7,995 bases of DNA from a virus: UHGV virus genome UHGV-1440563, one strand, 5' to 3'. The notes below the pieces were generated by a model. That model ran no database searches and was not told where the DNA came from. It saw nothing but the letters and a program-made list of their open reading frames with translations. Within the stretch, counting starts at the first letter, position 1; the number at the start of each line of letters is the position of its first letter. The position numbers and the translations under genes were made by a program. Positions 1 to 7,968 of the stretch are shown here, piece by piece.

Positions 1-30
1 AAAATTTGGTTCGCACAATGACGTTATGCT

Positions 31-71
31 AAAAAGGCCGCTGCGGGATTCGATTTTCGCAACGGCCTTTT
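31..71. terminator. Bidirectional intrinsic-terminator-like hairpin: stem 36-45 GGCCGCTGCG pairs with 58-67 CGCAACGGCC (one C.A mismatch), 12-nt loop, flanked by AAAAA (31-35) and TTTT (68-71)
   Basis: Read directly from sequence. On the minus strand it lies about 70 nt downstream of the stop of the 77-aa ORF. Confidence 0.45.
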
Positions 72-101
72 CAACATAACGAGTCGTACATTATGCGCAC
101 C
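69..101 (-). other. dif-like XerC/XerD recombination site. Minus strand reads GGTGCGCATAA (XerC arm, identical to E. coli dif), TGTACGACTCG (11-nt central region), TTATGTTGAAA (XerD-like arm, 9 of 11 match to TTATGTTAAAT)
   Basis: Reverse complement of 69-101 compared with the E. coli dif consensus GGTGCGCATAA-TGTATA-TTATGTTAAAT recalled from memory. The arms match but the spacer is 11 nt instead of 6. Confidence 0.5.
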
Positions 102-139
102 AATGGTAAGGATGGCGGGAACTGGCGTTACCGGTGCCG

Positions 140-373
140 TCATTGGTCACAGACCGTAATCCACTGGCCCAGGACGTCTTTCAGGCAATGTTGGCATAAA
201 TCCAGTTTTAAGCGATTACTGTCACCAAAAATTGAACCGTATCCAGCTAAGTGATTAACAGACAGAAACTCATTGAACTCAATGTCATCTACCACCGTCT
301 TCGCATGGCGACCACAGCGATCGCAGGTCTTCGCACATAACATTACAGTATCGCTGGATGTGAAAAATTGCAT
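140..373 (-). CDS. Hypothetical 77-aa protein with zinc-ribbon-like Cys pairs (CDRC ... CQHC, about 40 residues apart); function unknown
   Basis: Strong Shine-Dalgarno (GAGGAGA, 5-6 nt before the ATG at 373) seen on the minus strand. Two CxxC pairs in the translation. Terminator-like hairpin downstream. No family recognised. Confidence 0.5.
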   Translation of the reverse strand: MQFFTSSDTVMLCAKTCDRCGRHAKTVVDDIEFNEFLSVNHLAGYGSIFGDSNRLKLDLCQHCLKDVLGQWITVCDQ

Positions 374-490
374 TTTATCTCCTCGTAATGCTGCCGCGCC
401 GAATCAGCAATAACGCTAAAAAAACAGAATTGTTCGGCTTGGCCAACCCCTGACACTAACAAAAGCAAGTTTTGTCATTGTCCGGGGTTA

Positions 491-799
491 TCATATAAAC
501 CAATAGACCGTCCTTACGCCATTCTGGTTATCAATAACATAGCCGCATTGTTTCCTTAAAAATTCTTCTGCTAAATCAATGGCTTTTACAGAAATCTCAT
601 AAGAAGGAAGTAAAGTGTATCCTTTCCCTTCACTGGCAGCTGCTTTGATCGCATCCAGAGTATTATCAATCAGTAACAGAGCAAGTGATGCTTCATTTAC
701 CTGAGCCGAAGAACTTCTGGCTGCAAGTGTCATTGTTTTTGCTTCTTCCGCTGTAATCGTTCGTTCTGCCAGAGCAGATAAAATCCCATAAGAATCCAT
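491..799 (-). CDS. Hypothetical 102-aa protein, Ala/Leu-rich and predicted helical; function unknown
   Basis: ORF begins 20 nt downstream (minus strand) of the hairpin that follows gIV. Weak SD (TGGGGT). Same strand as the phage genes. No family recognised. Confidence 0.45.
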   Translation of the reverse strand: MDSYGILSALAERTITAEEAKTMTLAARSSSAQVNEASLALLLIDNTLDAIKAAASEGKGYTLLPSYEISVKAIDLAEEFLRKQCGYVIDNQNGVRTVYWFI

Positions 800-879: not shown

Positions 880-2134
880 GAATGATATGTGCTGTAAGCA
901 AAATATACATAATACGCTGTTCATTGCTGTCTGCCTTGCTACTGAAAATCCAGCCTATAAGAGGAATTTTACTTATAACTGGAACTGAACGCTCGGCATT
1001 GCTGAACGATGAATCGATAAGCCCCCCCAATAACAACGTCTGACCATCCTTAATCTGGACTGTCGTCTGAATCTGGCGCTGATTAGTAATAATATCGGAT
1101 GCCTGATCATCATTGCTGATTGAATCAGCGCGAGTGTCGATAGTCAGAACTAGTTGCCCGTTACCCATGACAACAGGCGTTACCTTGAGAGAAACGCCAA
1201 CATCATGACGCTCGATAGTCTGAAACGGATTATTTACCCCGGCAGATTCGCCCGTTACCTTTCCGGTGATAAACGGCACATTCTTACCTACGGAAATGTA
1301 ACCAGTCTGACCAGACTGAGTAAGAATACGCGGCGTTGAAATCACCTTAGAGCGTGAATTACTCTGGACAGCACGCAGAGACAGCGCCAACACGTTACCA
1401 TCAAAAATACCAAAAGAACCGCCCGCCGTAGAAAGAGCACTACCCAGTGCAGAAGTATTAAAGCCCCCCGCAACCTTATGACCGGATGCAGAACCTGCCG
1501 CAAACGATAAATCAACGCCATCAGACAAGCTGGTTTCAAACATCAGCGACTGAATGAGAACCTGATCGCGGGCAACATCCACAGAATTGATAAAATCGGA
1601 CAGAACCGGCAGCAGCTCGTCAGGCGCAGAAACAATCAGCGAGTTATTGCCTGGATAATCCACGACATTACCACCACCATTAGAATCAAGATAAATTTTA
1701 ATCAGTTGCTGAACATCGGACGATCTAACTTTTGTCAGCTTAAAATTTCTGACCGTAAGCGCCACAGGTACTGGCTGGTAAGATGGCTCAGAAGGAAAAG
1801 TATCATAAGACTGGTTATCAGAATCATCGGAATCCGAAACCATCTGTGAAGGTAATTTAGACGGCAAAGAGACTACCGCAGGATTGCCAGAAAGCATGAC
1901 AAAACCGTTAGCATTCAGAACAGACTTAAAGAAATCATCAATATTTGTTGGATTAACATCAGCATTAAATACGGTTACGTTTCCTTTAATATCAGGATTA
2001 ACAATAACAGGCTTGCCAGTTTTTGAAGAATACCACTGAACAAATGAGCGAACAGATGAATTATTTAAATTAACAGTTTCAGCAGAAACGCAGAATGAAC
2101 AGGCAAATAAAAAAGCAACAATAACAGAGCGCAT
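869..2134 (-). CDS. IV: pIV secretin (phage export channel), with N-terminal signal peptide
   Basis: Translation aligns along its length with M13 pIV, including near-identical C-terminal secretin blocks (VPFITGKVTGESAGVNNPFQTIER, LLLGGL, SKIPLIG). Start moved to the ATG at 2134 (MRSVIVAFLF...) which has an AGGAG SD; the track ORF extends 31 codons further upstream. Confidence 0.9.
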   Translation of the reverse strand: MRSVIVAFLFACSFCVSAETVNLNNSSVRSFVQWYSSKTGKPVIVNPDIKGNVTVFNADVNPTNIDDFFKSVLNANGFVMLSGNPAVVSLPSKLPSQMVSDSDDSDNQSYDTFPSEPSYQPVPVALTVRNFKLTKVRSSDVQQLIKIYLDSNGGGNVVDYPGNNSLIVSAPDELLPVLSDFINSVDVARDQVLIQSLMFETSLSDGVDLSFAAGSASGHKVAGGFNTSALGSALSTAGGSFGIFDGNVLALSLRAVQSNSRSKVISTPRILTQSGQTGYISVGKNVPFITGKVTGESAGVNNPFQTIERHDVGVSLKVTPVVMGNGQLVLTIDTRADSISNDDQASDIITNQRQIQTTVQIKDGQTLLLGGLIDSSFSNAERSVPVISKIPLIGWIFSSKADSNEQRIMYILLTAHIIRPL

Positions 2135-3581: not shown

Positions 3582-4855
3582 TCACCCCCTTTGCGAAGCA
3601 ATGAAGTTAAAGAAGTAAAGACATACCAGAACGTAAGGCAATAAAAAACCCATGAAAGAACATCTTTAATAGTCAGTAATTTATCGCAACCAATATCAAT
3701 CTGATAAACCTCTCCGGGAAAAATAATAAAATCAGAGCAGCCGTTACCATTGGGTAAATTAGGCAGCATAGCACCTTTATTTAAAAATGCTTCCCATAAA
3801 GCACCGTGAGAATCCTTTTCAATTCCCAATTCAGAATCAGCCAAAGTAGAAGCGCCATCTAATTCAGAGTCGCCCTTTCCATAACGAGAATCACCACCTG
3901 AAGGGTCAGCAAAACGGCCAGCCCCCCGCGTAAGATTGTTAATGGAATCGTCAAGACGATTTATATTATTCCTGGTTTGTTCATCGGCATTTTTTTTATC
4001 ATCTGATGAAGTGTCTTTCTCCGTTAATTTATCATGAATATCGCTGGCTATTTTGGGTGAAGCACCTTCGATCGCAGACTGAATATCACCTTTAGAAAGA
4101 CTGGAACCACTAGAGCCACCGCCAGAACTACCGCCAGAGCCACCGCCAGAACTACCGCCAGAACTACCGCCAGAGCCACCGCCAGAACTACCGCCAGAAC
4201 TACCGCCGCCAGACTCACCACCACCGGACTCACCACCGCCATTTTGGGGGGTTGAGGGTTTATCAGAGGGGTCAGCTACAGCACCTGTAGGCTTCCATGT
4301 TGCAGCGCAAACAGTACCATCACCCTGACAAACAATGACACCAGTAGCCTCATATTCACAGCCGTTATAGTAGATATAGCGACCACCATCATATGAATCA
4401 ACATTATTAAATACACCTTCTTCTGGCGGCTTCGCTTCACAAATTTCTTCTGGTGTCGGGTCAGTAGGTTTTTCATCAGGAACAGAACGCTGAATATTAC
4501 CAACAATATAAGCCGTTAAAGACCAATATTTATCCTTCTGCCCTGGTGAATCGCTGTAAGTACAATCACCAGTAAAAACAAGACGGAATTCAGAATCAGG
4601 CCAGATACCCTCATAAGTTGGTTTAACCCGAGTAAATACACTCTGAGCACTGGATTTAGCACCCTGACAAGCGGAGGCCTGCATAGCAGCATCAATATAG
4701 TAAACCGTTGTCTTAGAGCCATCCTGATTGGTTATTTGCTTACTTTCAGCGTAGGCAGAACTTTGATAAGTGGATTTAGTAATGCTTTCCCATGACTCAG
4801 CATGTGAAAAAGGAGAAATGAGGACAGCGGAAAGAATTAATATTTTCCTTTTCAT
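3578..4855 (-). CDS. III: pIII adsorption (attachment) protein: signal peptide, divergent N-terminal receptor-binding region, Gly/Ser linker, conserved C-terminal membrane anchor
   Basis: Start set at the internal ATG 4855 ([19 protein letters not shown], compare M13 MKKLLFAIPLVVPFYSHS). Gly/Ser-rich linker. C-terminus NKGAM...NGNG...IGCDKL...FWYVFTS resembles the M13 pIII C-terminal domain. Confidence 0.88.
4100..4240 (-). repeat. Tandem short-period repeats encoding the Gly/Ser-rich pIII interdomain linker (GGGES / GGSS / GGGS units)
   Basis: Reiterated accgccaga(a/g)c units visible on the plus strand; the translation is 47 residues of G, S and E. Confidence 0.85.
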
Positions 4856-5676: not shown

Positions 5677-5991
5677 TTAATGCCAGCTACTGGCGTGCGA
5701 AATACGGTTGTAATCGAAAATAAAACCTTTCTCATAAATCCATAAGGGGATTTCCGCTGGCTTGGCTTCCAGCGTTCTTATTAGCGGAACAACGTTATTA
5801 GAGTCTGGTGAATCACAATAGAAATTAATATCGATACCGAACGAAAGCAATTCTCTTCTATGGCGATAAAAAGTGTTATGAGGTAACATTTCTTTCATGT
5901 TAGCCCCTTGTTTCCAAAGTAAATAAGTTGACTGTATTTTTCTTGGCAGTTTCGTTATTTTTTCATCACTTAAAATAGCATTCTGATTCAT
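5677..5991 (-). CDS. X: pX, in-frame internal restart within gene II (C-terminal 104 aa)
   Basis: Internal ATG at 5991 preceded by GGGAGA SD. MNQNAILSDEK... aligns with the M13 pX start MNIYDDSAVLDA... Confidence 0.6.
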   Translation of the reverse strand: MNQNAILSDEKITKLPRKIQSTYLLWKQGANMKEMLPHNTFYRHRRELLSFGIDINFYCDSPDSNNVVPLIRTLEAKPAEIPLWIYEKGFIFDYNRISHASSWH

Positions 5992-6729
5992 TTCTATTCT
6001 CCCTACATATTCAGAGAATAATTGACGTGGTGTTTTCATATTCCAGTTAGCGCCAAGCGTTAAATTTAAATCAATAAGCTCAGTTGTTCTTAATGTTAAT
6101 TCAATACGTAATTTATCTTTCGTCCAGTCCAGTAACCCGGCTCGTACAAACTCTTCGGCTATCTGGTGCCCTTTTTTACCAGAAACGTGTTCATCATATT
6201 TTGAATAAAATTTCAGACTCCATCGACGGGAGTTTTTACCTAAATAAACTGTACCGCCTTTCCCACATGCGCGACCATGGCGTGTTTTAGCTTTAAATTC
6301 GGCGGCATAAAGCCATGATCTGACATTTTCCAGCGTAGATAATGAATACATGTAATTAATGTCAACACGTGAAATTTTATACTGACCTGCCATAACGGCT
6401 TTATAAGACGCTAAATCATGAGGAATATTCAATAAGGATAAAATCCTGGCATAGACCGTCAACATGAGCCCTTGTATATCATCCGACCCAACAACAGAAT
6501 GCCCCTGCAGAAACTTGGAAGGATTACCATCAATGTACAAATGTGTCGCTTTACCTTCGCCATTAGATCCTATCGATCGTACTTTCATCGTTGCTTCATG
6601 CGAGCCGCGAACAGTCAGTCGCTTAACGGTTTCCCACTCAATTGCACCGTCAGCATCAACGCTGACAACACTCCCCGCCGGAAGCGGTTTGTGTGTGCAA
6701 GGGAAAATCCCGGTAAGCCAATCGATCAC
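5677..6729 (-). CDS. II: pII rolling-circle replication initiator (nickase)
   Basis: Collinear similarity to M13 pII (LQGHSVVGSDD vs LQGHNVFGTTD; NNVVPLIRT vs NNVVPLVRF). Preferred start is GTG at 6729 (V-I-D-W, compare M13 M-I-D-M) with GAGGA SD 7 nt upstream. The track ORF starts at an upstream GTG (6771) that has no SD. Confidence 0.85.
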   Translation of the reverse strand: MIDWLTGIFPCTHKPLPAGSVVSVDADGAIEWETVKRLTVRGSHEATMKVRSIGSNGEGKATHLYIDGNPSKFLQGHSVVGSDDIQGLMLTVYARILSLLNIPHDLASYKAVMAGQYKISRVDINYMYSLSTLENVRSWLYAAEFKAKTRHGRACGKGGTVYLGKNSRRWSLKFYSKYDEHVSGKKGHQIAEEFVRAGLLDWTKDKLRIELTLRTTELIDLNLTLGANWNMKTPRQLFSEYVGRIEMNQNAILSDEKITKLPRKIQSTYLLWKQGANMKEMLPHNTFYRHRRELLSFGIDINFYCDSPDSNNVVPLIRTLEAKPAEIPLWIYEKGFIFDYNRISHASSWH

Positions 6730-6771
6730 GAATAAATCCTCAAAATTGCAAAAATGACGACTTACTAACAC

Positions 6772-6857
6772 ATGAGTTCAGTAGTTCATTAGTGTTTAAA
6801 CATTACACCAGTGAGCTAGTGAGTTCAAGAGGCTTGGATGATATGAGTTCATGAGCA
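6772..6857. promoter_or_regulatory. Direct-repeat array in the divergent gII / RHH-ORF control region: (A/G)TGAGTTCA at 6772-6780, 6819-6827, 6843-6851, plus degenerate copies (GTAGTTCA 6781-6788, GTGAGCT 6811-6817, ATGAGCA 6851-6857)
   Basis: Read directly. Three exact 8-mers within 80 bp in the gII upstream region; candidate operator or origin-associated binding sites. Confidence 0.45.
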
Positions 6858-6898
6858 TGTATACTCACTTCAAATATTGCATTGAACGAGCGTAAAAA

Positions 6899-7081
6899 AT
6901 GGCAAAGCGCACGACTTATAACGTGACGGAAGAAAGAAAAATGAAACTAGAACGACTGGCTATAAATGCCAGTGTAAAACTAGGAAAAACAATTACATGG
7001 ACAGAGATTTTAGGTTATCTGATTGATAACTACTCTAAAGATGCAGCAGAAGATCTCATGTCTGCCAAACAAAAGGATTAA
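6899..7081 (+). CDS. Small (60 aa) putative ribbon-helix-helix (CopG/Arc-like) DNA-binding protein
   Basis: Pattern of short polar/hydrophobic strand (TTYNVT), helix (EERKMKLERLAINA), Gly-containing turn and second helix (ITWTEILGYLIDNY) resembles CopG-type RHH repressors. Only a weak SD. Divergent from gII, with the repeat array between them. Confidence 0.5.
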   Translation: MAKRTTYNVTEERKMKLERLAINASVKLGKTITWTEILGYLIDNYSKDAAEDLMSAKQKD

Positions 7082-7135
7082 GTACCACGAATGGTACAAA
7101 CGTGCAGTATTACCTACACTGCACGTTCTTTTTTG
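7082..7135 (+). terminator. Tandem hairpins after the 60-aa ORF: GTACCA-cgaa-TGGTAC (7082-7097), then a perfect 9-bp stem ACGTGCAGT / ACTGCACGT (7100-7108 and 7118-7126) followed by TCTTTTTT (intrinsic terminator)
   Basis: Read directly. GC-containing perfect stem plus T-run immediately 3' of the stop codon at 7079-7081. Confidence 0.65.
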
Positions 7136-7180: not shown

Positions 7181-7209
7181 TCGACATTCGAAATGTTAAC
7201 TATTATTAA
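7181..7209 (+). promoter_or_regulatory. Possible sigma70-type promoter for the Doc-like gene (-35 TCGACA 7181-7186, 17-nt spacer, -10 TATTAA 7204-7209); GTTAAC palindromes at 7160-7165 and 7195-7200
   Basis: Hexamer inspection only; both hexamers are imperfect. Confidence 0.25.
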
Positions 7210-7233
7210 CAAATAGAGTAATGGAAGAATATA

Positions 7234-7968
7234 ATGATCACTATAGAAGAAGCAACATCGGTCCATGAATATTTAACAAATTACTATCAAAACTCTGATG
7301 ATCCTATCTCTCCTCCGGGAATAAAAAACATAGAGCTTTTAGAGTCTGCCATAGCAAGACCTTTTATGACCATGAACAGAAAGGATGTCTATCCAGATGA
7401 TTTAGATAAAGCCGCAGCTCTATTTCATGGTGTCATATCCAACCACTGTTTCCATAATGGTAATAAAAGAACAGCACTTCTACTAACCATGTGCTTTTTA
7501 GACCGAGCTGGATATTGGCTGGATAAGTGTGATGACCTGCAACTCTTTGAATTTACAAGAAGTGTTGCGGCACATGAGATATGTAAAAATAGAATTGATG
7601 AAATAAAAACAATCAAGGCATTTTTCCGAAGTAATTCACGGAAGAAAAAAATCACAGATGAACAATTGAGTTTTATTGCATTAAGCAGGCATCTAACCAA
7701 CGCAGGTTTCAATATAGAAGACGATGGTGACTATTACTCTATCTTTAAAAATAATAAAAGATATACAAAAATAATAAAAAAAGGCGCATCAGGACATGAA
7801 AAATACGATCCACAATACATAAAATCCCTTAGAAAAAGATTGCTTCTTACCCCGAAGTATGGATGGGATAGCATAAGGTTTTATCAATTATATTCATCAT
7901 TGACGGAAAACATTGGTGAATTATTACGTTTACGTGGAGAGGTAATGGACTGGCTTGCAAAAATATAA
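7234..7968 (+). CDS. Doc/Fic-family protein (death-on-curing-like toxin domain, residues about 1-125) fused to an unassigned Lys-rich C-terminal region of about 120 aa
   Basis: Motif HCFHNGNKR (residues 71-79, nt 7444-7470) fits the Doc signature HxFx(D/N)(A/G)NKR. The surrounding region aligns with P1 Doc as I recall it (...PGI.N.ELLESAIARP..., NKRTALL..., ...AAHEI). GGAAG SD 6 nt upstream. Confidence 0.8.
   Translation: MITIEEATSVHEYLTNYYQNSDDPISPPGIKNIELLESAIARPFMTMNRKDVYPDDLDKAAALFHGVISNHCFHNGNKRTALLLTMCFLDRAGYWLDKCDDLQLFEFTRSVAAHEICKNRIDEIKTIKAFFRSNSRKKKITDEQLSFIALSRHLTNAGFNIEDDGDYYSIFKNNKRYTKIIKKGASGHEKYDPQYIKSLRKRLLLTPKYGWDSIRFYQLYSSLTENIGELLRLRGEVMDWLAKI

Follow-up and report, generated by a model that had tools for sequence, protein, structure and literature searches.

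Immunity regions of related filamentous phages

In CTXphi, an inovirus that integrates at dif, a small regulator gene (rstR) lies divergent from the replication gene (rstA), with the intergenic region ig-2 between them. Lux assays have shown that rstR alleles, three small ones (180-204 bp) among them, act as allele-specific repressors, each on its cognate ig-2 promoter (PMC11509585). The regulator of YpfPhi/CUS-1, YPO2273, has been described as an RstR homologue of unproven function (PMC4266046). RstR-ET and classical RstR of the CTXphi family, as well as YPO2273, are HTH proteins of the Cro/CI type. UPphi-type prophages occupy dif in E. coli, Salmonella, Klebsiella and Citrobacter, with hundreds of genomes carrying one; in their description the dif-adjacent ORFs were left as 'hypothetical' and the control region was not discussed (PMC7307601). 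In the literature that we searched, ribbon-helix-helix (RHH) proteins of filamentous phages receive passing mentions only, and no paper linking RstR with the ribbon-helix-helix fold was found. RHH proteins contact DNA as dimers, by means of an antiparallel beta-ribbon inserted in the major groove. One of them, MetJ, binds operators made of 2-5 tandem 8-bp pseudo-palindromic met boxes, with one dimer per unit and cooperatively. Rolling-circle origins, for their part, often carry Rep-binding repeats, as is the case in the Ff phages.

The DNA analysed here (a stretch of 7,995 nucleotides, hereafter the window) resembles the CTXphi region in three respects: the inovirus integrates at dif and has a small regulator gene divergent from that for replication; regulator-specific sites lie in the intergenic region, where they overlap the predicted promoter of the replication gene; and regulator and intergenic region are swapped as a cassette among related phages, which would give heteroimmunity. 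It differs in the nature of the regulator, which is RHH-like and 60 aa long, in its putative operators, which are tandem 8-bp units whereas HTH-type regions carry long palindromes, and in the LexA box. A LexA-box-like site was sought in the intergenic region and none was found, and LexA co-regulation as in CTXphi was accordingly rejected. We propose that the TGAGTTCA repeats located between the two divergent genes are probably the operator array of an immunity/replication-control switch, in an RstR-like region, bound by the 60-aa RHH repressor.

A UPphi-type prophage and the probable start of gII

A UPphi-type filamentous prophage of E. coli, integrated at dif, makes up the window, and its gene layout fits the 'UPphi' prophages of Shapiro and Putonti (PMC7307601). 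A copy 99.7% identical to it is found in complete E. coli genomes, flanked by the ydeT fimbrial pseudogene and hipA; these flanks are the dif region. The inovirus gene set is complete and lies entirely on the minus strand (gII, gV, gVIII, gIII, gVI, gI, which is Zot-like, and gIV, a secretin), with the following features around the control region:

5677-6729, minus strand: gII, rolling-circle replication initiator (Phage_CRI, E 9e-70; G2P_X_C, E 2.5e-29) and predicted controlled gene
6727-6741, minus strand: probable true start of gII, GTG at 6729 to 6727 with Shine-Dalgarno GAGGA at 6741 to 6737, from the gene call and alignments
6899-7081, plus strand: 60-aa ORF, predicted ribbon-helix-helix repressor (phrog_2503), in the position held by rstR in CTXphi and YPO2273 in YpfPhi
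7099-7127, plus strand: hairpin
7234-7968, plus strand: Doc/Fic-family gene

The pII protein is 56% identical to that of I2-2 gII. The mechanical ORF start of gII is GTG 6771; GTG 6729, preceded 7 nt upstream by GAGGA, is far likelier, and gII very probably starts there. Three observations lead to this position: the PGAP gene call is 1053 bp long, the alignment with I2-2 and YpfPhi-type pII begins at residue 15, and the YpfPhi-type gII of prophage L011 has an ATG at the homologous position. With this start, the intergenic region spans 6730-6898 (169 bp) and the first repeat is found 44 bp upstream of gII.

Two other parts of the window deserve mention. The Doc/Fic protein has 244 aa, with a Fic domain at residues 3-89 and no domain match in the remainder; among 5426 complete E. 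coli genomes, only 4 carry its gene, which has no adjoining Phd-type antitoxin gene. A sigma-70-like site (11/12, 7206-7235) precedes it, with a -10 that overlaps the Doc/Fic start codon within the palindrome TATAATGATCACTATA. Within gIII, at about 4050-4250, there is a dense coding repeat, with 8 copies of CCGCCAGA in 100 bp (plus strand), corresponding to the glycine/serine-rich linker of the attachment protein. The gIII linker region is reported to vary more than any other part of the UPphi phage (PMC7307601).

Tandem 8-bp units at three sites

The three exact copies of an 8-mer preceded by A or G, from which the original prediction had set out, are all found: TGAGTTCA occurs on the plus strand at 6773-6780, 6820-6827 and 6844-6851, preceded by A, G and A, respectively. 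Counted over the whole window the 8-mer is enriched, with 4 copies against 0.33 expected, a number reached in none of 200 shuffles. The fourth copy (274-281, minus strand, with a TGAGTTT 9 bp further on) was considered as a further site and discarded: it codes for E-F-N-E-F in the ORF at 140-373 and is probably a coding coincidence. We also applied a stricter test that corrects for the post hoc choice of the 8-mer, in which some 8-mer with at least three non-overlapping copies within 100 bp appeared in 17 of 1000 dinucleotide shuffles (1.7%). The density of the cluster is therefore significant, as had been claimed, but not overwhelming once this choice is corrected for, and the case for operators depends on the comparison across phages.

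The intergenic region, when matched against itself, shows a sole peak at lag 8 (z = 4.4), and every exact TGAGTTCA in it pairs with an adjoining 8-bp unit in tandem, giving a site of 16 bp. The neighbouring units are GTAGTTCA at 6781, TGAGCTAG at 6812, TGAGCATG at 6852 and TATACTCA at 6860. This changes the meaning of the degenerate copies that had been noticed in the region: neighbouring units do exist, yet none is within one mismatch of the 8-mer, and they are best described as units lying in phase next to the exact copies. Taken singly, the degenerate halves of the sites are close to random. The three sites are:

6773-6788, plus strand: site A, TGAGTTCA followed by GTAGTTCA; 44-59 nt upstream of the gII start codon and downstream of the predicted gII promoter
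6812-6827, plus strand: site B, TGAGCTAG followed by TGAGTTCA; overlies both the -35 hexamer and the spacer in the predicted promoter of gII
6844-6867, plus strand: site C, TGAGTTCA followed by TGAGCATG (two-unit core, 6844-6859) and then by TATACTCA

Within site C, TGAGCATGTATACTCA (6852-6867) forms a TGAG-N8-CTCA palindrome. An equivalent of site A, with 2-3 units, is present in all nine distinct relatives with the 60-aa ORF. In site B the second unit is invariant across relatives, while the first is degenerate and varies in orientation. The spacing from B to C is 24-25 bp in all relatives, and the sequence between sites diverges freely. The term 'direct repeats' used in the original prediction is correct only in part, as the orientation of the units flips among relatives between TGAGTTCA and its reverse complement, TGAACTCA.

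Predicted promoters overlap the units

Two promoters can be predicted in the intergenic region, facing opposite genes:

6800-6828, minus strand: predicted gII promoter, with -35 TTGAAC at 6828 to 6823, a 17-bp spacer and -10 TAATGT at 6805 to 6800
6860-6865, plus strand: predicted -10 (TATACT) for transcription of the 60-aa ORF, whose ATG follows 33 nt later

The -10 of gII in the window is weak (3 of 6 consensus positions) and was missed by a consensus promoter scan. All nine TGAGTTCA-type loci examined show, at a corresponding place, a TTGAAC-17/18-TAnnnT arrangement facing the replication gene. On the regulator strand, TATACT, TATAAT or TAGAAT lies directly 3' of site C (9/9 loci), so that site C abuts and overlaps the predicted -10 of the regulator's own promoter; no conserved -35 for this promoter was found among the nine loci compared. 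In all nine, the units overlap conserved predicted promoter elements on both strands.

The repeats travel with the regulator

Two proteins had been put forward as possible ligands of the repeats: the RHH protein, for autoregulation and control of gII, and pII, at a plus-strand origin. These options can be told apart through phages in which the two proteins are found in other combinations. In 116 complete E. coli genomes (UTI89 and NC101 among them) only the ends of the query were matched, i.e.: the 5' end of gII and the hairpin, and an HTH regulator is annotated under the match in every record of this class among the matches listed. Two YpfPhi/CUS-1-type prophages that we examined (L011 and L012) show what happens in between: their pII is 86% identical to that of the window and the hairpin is conserved, and an HTH_3 protein of 148-150 aa takes the place of the 60-aa ORF. 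TGAGTTCA was not found within one mismatch in the intergenic regions of these two prophages, which bear unrelated inverted repeats. The repeats are also absent from I2-2.

The reverse combination exists too. Homologues of the 60-aa ORF with 57-86% identity were found in L007, L008-L010, L014, L016, L018 and L020, from hosts that include Providencia, an Enterobacteriaceae cluster and Scandinavium, and from metagenomes. Most of these homologues adjoin replication proteins without significant similarity to the pII of the window and another, in L006, adjoins a Rep_trans protein. All these loci retain TGAGTTCA/TGAACTCA units at sites A, B and C, the same three positions upstream of the replication gene. 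A scan of a contig set with one genome per species yielded only 4 loci. The periodicity follows the same pattern: lag-8 z scores are 2.1-6.0 in 12 of 13 intergenic regions beside enterobacterial-type family members (the remaining one, I2-2, gives 1.2), and 0.0 and 0.6 in two HTH-type intergenic regions. The repeats are hence absent next to an 86% identical pII and present next to unrelated Rep proteins: they are conserved at three fixed positions and travel with the 60-aa protein, not with pII.

These data bear on a further explanation, that the 8-mers arise by chance or from redundancy of promoter elements, or are sites for a host factor, and do not serve a phage protein. The 1.7% of shuffles with a three-copy cluster, the TTGAAC-like -35 sequence contained in the unit and the binding of RovA to the equivalent promoter region of YpfPhi (PMC4266046) all speak for it. 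Nevertheless, the units are exactly conserved at three positions while flanks diverge, next to regulators with identities down to about 57%; the sequence of the unit changes with the beta-strand of the regulator (see below); and no LexA box is present. We consider this explanation extremely unlikely.

Hairpin blocks follow the pII type

If the repeats do not follow pII, another element does:

7096-7128, minus strand: invariant hairpin block with stem AACGTGCAGT / ACTGCACGTT, candidate pII-cognate element (origin), outside the operator array and present only with the same pII type

This 33-nt block has a 12-bp stem and a 5-nt loop, and folds as DNA with -12.4 kcal/mol (z = -3.5). Except for the loop, it is invariant in UPphi, YpfPhi-type phages, I2-2 and an I2-2-like contig, in which the flanks differ, and it is limited to loci with the window's pII type, whichever their regulator. 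It lies about 230 bp from the repeats, beyond the regulator gene, and is the only pII-type-specific hairpin. Its loop, GGTAATAC, may resemble the T/AATA nick context of f1 and pT181. We rejected a simple terminator role for the hairpin (7099-7127) downstream of the regulator gene, since relatives keep the stem-loop unchanged but not the T-run that termination would require.

Phages with a second pII type (371-381 aa) have their own conserved block, containing GTGTCACAGAACCCCGAAC, just downstream of the regulator gene and independently of the type of operator; this block is absent from the window. The two hairpin blocks are mutually exclusive, each located 18-45 nt downstream of the regulator gene, and follow the two pII types exactly. 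The second block (TAAAGTTCGGGTGTCACAGAACCCCGAACCGCTTCGCGG) forms an imperfect hairpin, 18-45 nt past the stop codon of the regulator, and was observed in L008-L010, L014, L016, L021, L022 and L025; among the loci whose replication genes were compared it is specific to phages with the 371-381-aa pII, and it is also present in If1 (L025).

The pII-cognate element is thus more likely to be the hairpin at 7096-7128 than the repeats, and both hairpin blocks would be origins. As for the repeats being iterons, or pII-binding sites at a plus-strand origin, their location just upstream of gII, shared with the plus-strand origin of the Ff phages (f1/M13), and the frequency of Rep-binding repeats at rolling-circle origins speak for this proposal of the original prediction. 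It does not withstand the comparison: the repeats are missing with pII proteins that are 86% (YpfPhi/CUS-1-type) and 56% (I2-2) identical, they are kept beside unrelated Rep proteins, including one of the Rep_trans type, and it is the two exclusive hairpin blocks that track the two pII types, a clear difference from the Ff origin. That pII reads the repeats is therefore a most improbable option.

A small RHH-like protein whose beta-strand co-varies with the units

The 60-aa protein models as an RHH-like strand-helix-helix fold of about 45 residues: a single-chain AlphaFold model (pLDDT 81.6) shows an extended N-terminus and two helices. Sequence searches were far less informative. None of 15 family members matched Pfam even at E <= 10, MetJ models included; the 60-aa protein had no match in NCBIfam and no RHH-protein match in a PDB sequence search, and Foldseek returned nothing. 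Its sole match in sequence libraries is phrog_2503, annotated as 'unknown function'. A profile search for relatives gave 63 representatives, and wherever the genomic context of a family member could be established, its gene and the replication gene of an inovirus are divergent.

Close relatives share an unchanged N-terminal strand, KRTTYNVTE, and the form KR(T/A/K)TYN(V/I)TE is kept in all TGAGTTCA loci. More distant members have other strands and other units:

L022: strand RTTVSVT, 8-bp tandem unit GTTACTCA
L021: strand RTTMAIV, 8-bp units of ATGC/ATAC type
L019 and I2-2: strand RTTASIT, 8-bp units of GTATAC type

The sequence of the unit changes along with the predicted DNA-reading beta-strand. 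The rule of tandem 8-bp units is not universal in the family, since Vibrio members (L024 and L026) show GCATGC palindromes in their intergenic regions and no lag-8 signal. Altogether, co-occurrence and co-variation, the overlap with predicted promoters and the RHH-fold model lend comparative support to the repeats being sites for the RHH protein.

An RHH protein could bind such sites for other purposes. One is that the Doc/Fic toxin encoded downstream (7234-7968) has the 60-aa protein as its antitoxin, with the repeats as the autoregulatory operator of a TA pair. Yet among 48 E. coli genomes bearing an RHH-type region Doc was seen in just 4, the downstream genes of relatives are diverse or absent, 152 bp and a hairpin separate the 60-aa ORF from the Doc gene, the protein has no extra C-terminal segment for toxin binding, and site B overlaps a predicted promoter that faces gII; we regard this option as highly unlikely. 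Another is that the array is a centromere-like or copy-number site for an episomal replicative form, bound by the RHH protein in the manner of ParG/omega arrays. Here, no partition ATPase gene is found in the window or in related loci, the sites coincide with predicted promoter elements and there are only 6-7 units, so that a partition site seems scarcely more than a slim prospect.

A proposed operator mechanism

Returning to a repressor with its operators, we infer from these observations binding, its stoichiometry, the positions of the promoters and the direction of regulation. One RHH dimer would read one pseudo-palindromic 8-bp unit (TGA-GT-TCA), and adjoining dimers would bind cooperatively where two or three units stand in tandem. 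At site B (6812-6827), bound repressor would cover the -35 and spacer of the gII promoter and block gII transcription; site A (6773-6788), between the gII promoter and gII, would strengthen the block; and site C (6844-6867), abutting the -10 of the repressor's own promoter, would provide negative autoregulation. Such control would be ordinary, a small repressor and an operator array acting on the replication gene of an integrating inovirus, although exerted by an uncharacterised protein family.

MetJ provides an analogy, with window sites that are 16-24 bp of tandem 8-bp TGAnnTCA units, in register. The similarity stops there: the met-box unit is AGACGTCT whereas that of the window is TGAGTTCA, and MetJ is larger, needs S-adenosylmethionine and has no detectable sequence relationship to the 60-aa protein. 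Omega of pSM19035 (PDB 2bnw) binds 7-bp heptads in the same cooperative way, one dimer per unit, and CopG of pMV158 uses a 13-bp element; both come from other hosts and replicons and lack detectable sequence similarity, yet the orientation-free reading of short units that we propose may be analogous to that of omega.

If assigned, the repressor and its operators would explain the low replication of UPphi-type phages in lysogens, how the coexistence of UPphi with YpfPhi/CUS-1 could come about through heteroimmunity in spite of their common gII/gV, and the structural nature of the small rstR alleles in CTXphi-family phages. They would also offer a testable recognition series, with one scaffold, differing beta-strand residues and differing 8-bp units, and an operator separated from the likely origin hairpin, which would be useful for phagemid or reporter tools derived from these phages.

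The regulator family in other phages

The 60-aa protein is 40.7% identical (E 4e-6) to the 'environmental' RstR of CTXphi/pre-CTXphi, a name given from position and annotation only, and this RstR belongs to the same PHROG (phrog_2503, E 2e-23), as do the other Vibrio members; GCATGC palindromes are seen in its intergenic region too. No homology was found between the 60-aa protein and the HTH-type RstR or YPO2273. We also compared the experimentally tested small rstR alleles with the family through their primer sequences (PMC11509585): only the primer-encoded termini of rstR6 (MKKKYTSLRV... and ...KTDLKR) are similar, which is insufficient for membership.

Extending the reading of the window to the whole family, we lean slightly towards phrog_2503 being an unrecognised RHH family that provides many inoviruses of enterobacteria and Vibrio with their immunity repressor. 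Its members would read 8-bp arrays whatever the orientation of the units, and one or two residues of the beta-strand (Y-N versus V-S, M-A or A-S) would determine specificity; the exchange of RHH and HTH cassettes on a constant module of pII and hairpin origin would give rise to heteroimmune lineages such as UPphi and YpfPhi. The family may include the 'environmental' rstR of CTXphi and cryptic ORFs in the 'intergenic regions' of I2-2 and If1.

Some records of family members have peculiarities. In I2-2 (L002, NC_001332; 2918 to 2720, minus strand), the 60-aa ORF homologue is unannotated in the 'intergenic region' and has one frameshift after ...VTWTD; its counterpart in the I2-2-like contig L019 (P0117) is intact and 65 aa long. 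In the I2-2 record, moreover, the conserved hairpin contains an additional A that is seen in no relative. Both the frameshift and the extra A could be old sequencing errors. If1 (L025, NC_001954) has an intact, unannotated 62-aa family member in its 'major intergenic region' (locus 1495-1683, plus strand; phrog_2503 E 5e-27). Immediately upstream of this regulator, at about 1190-1415 (plus strand), there is an IS200-type Y1 transposase remnant (Pfam E 4e-22), and 'ORF348' (locus 1-762, minus strand) is an IS605 OrfB/TnpB (E 2e-33), indicating that an IS200/IS605 insertion stands between the regulator gene and the remaining control region.

Rearranged copies are also seen in E. coli. Strain LSN03-016011/A (L013, 1-2250) has tandem or partial prophages, with the regulator gene duplicated and a truncated gII between both copies, and strain EC5502 has 15 matching places in one genome, with scrambled variants of the 60-aa protein (P0060 and P0069).
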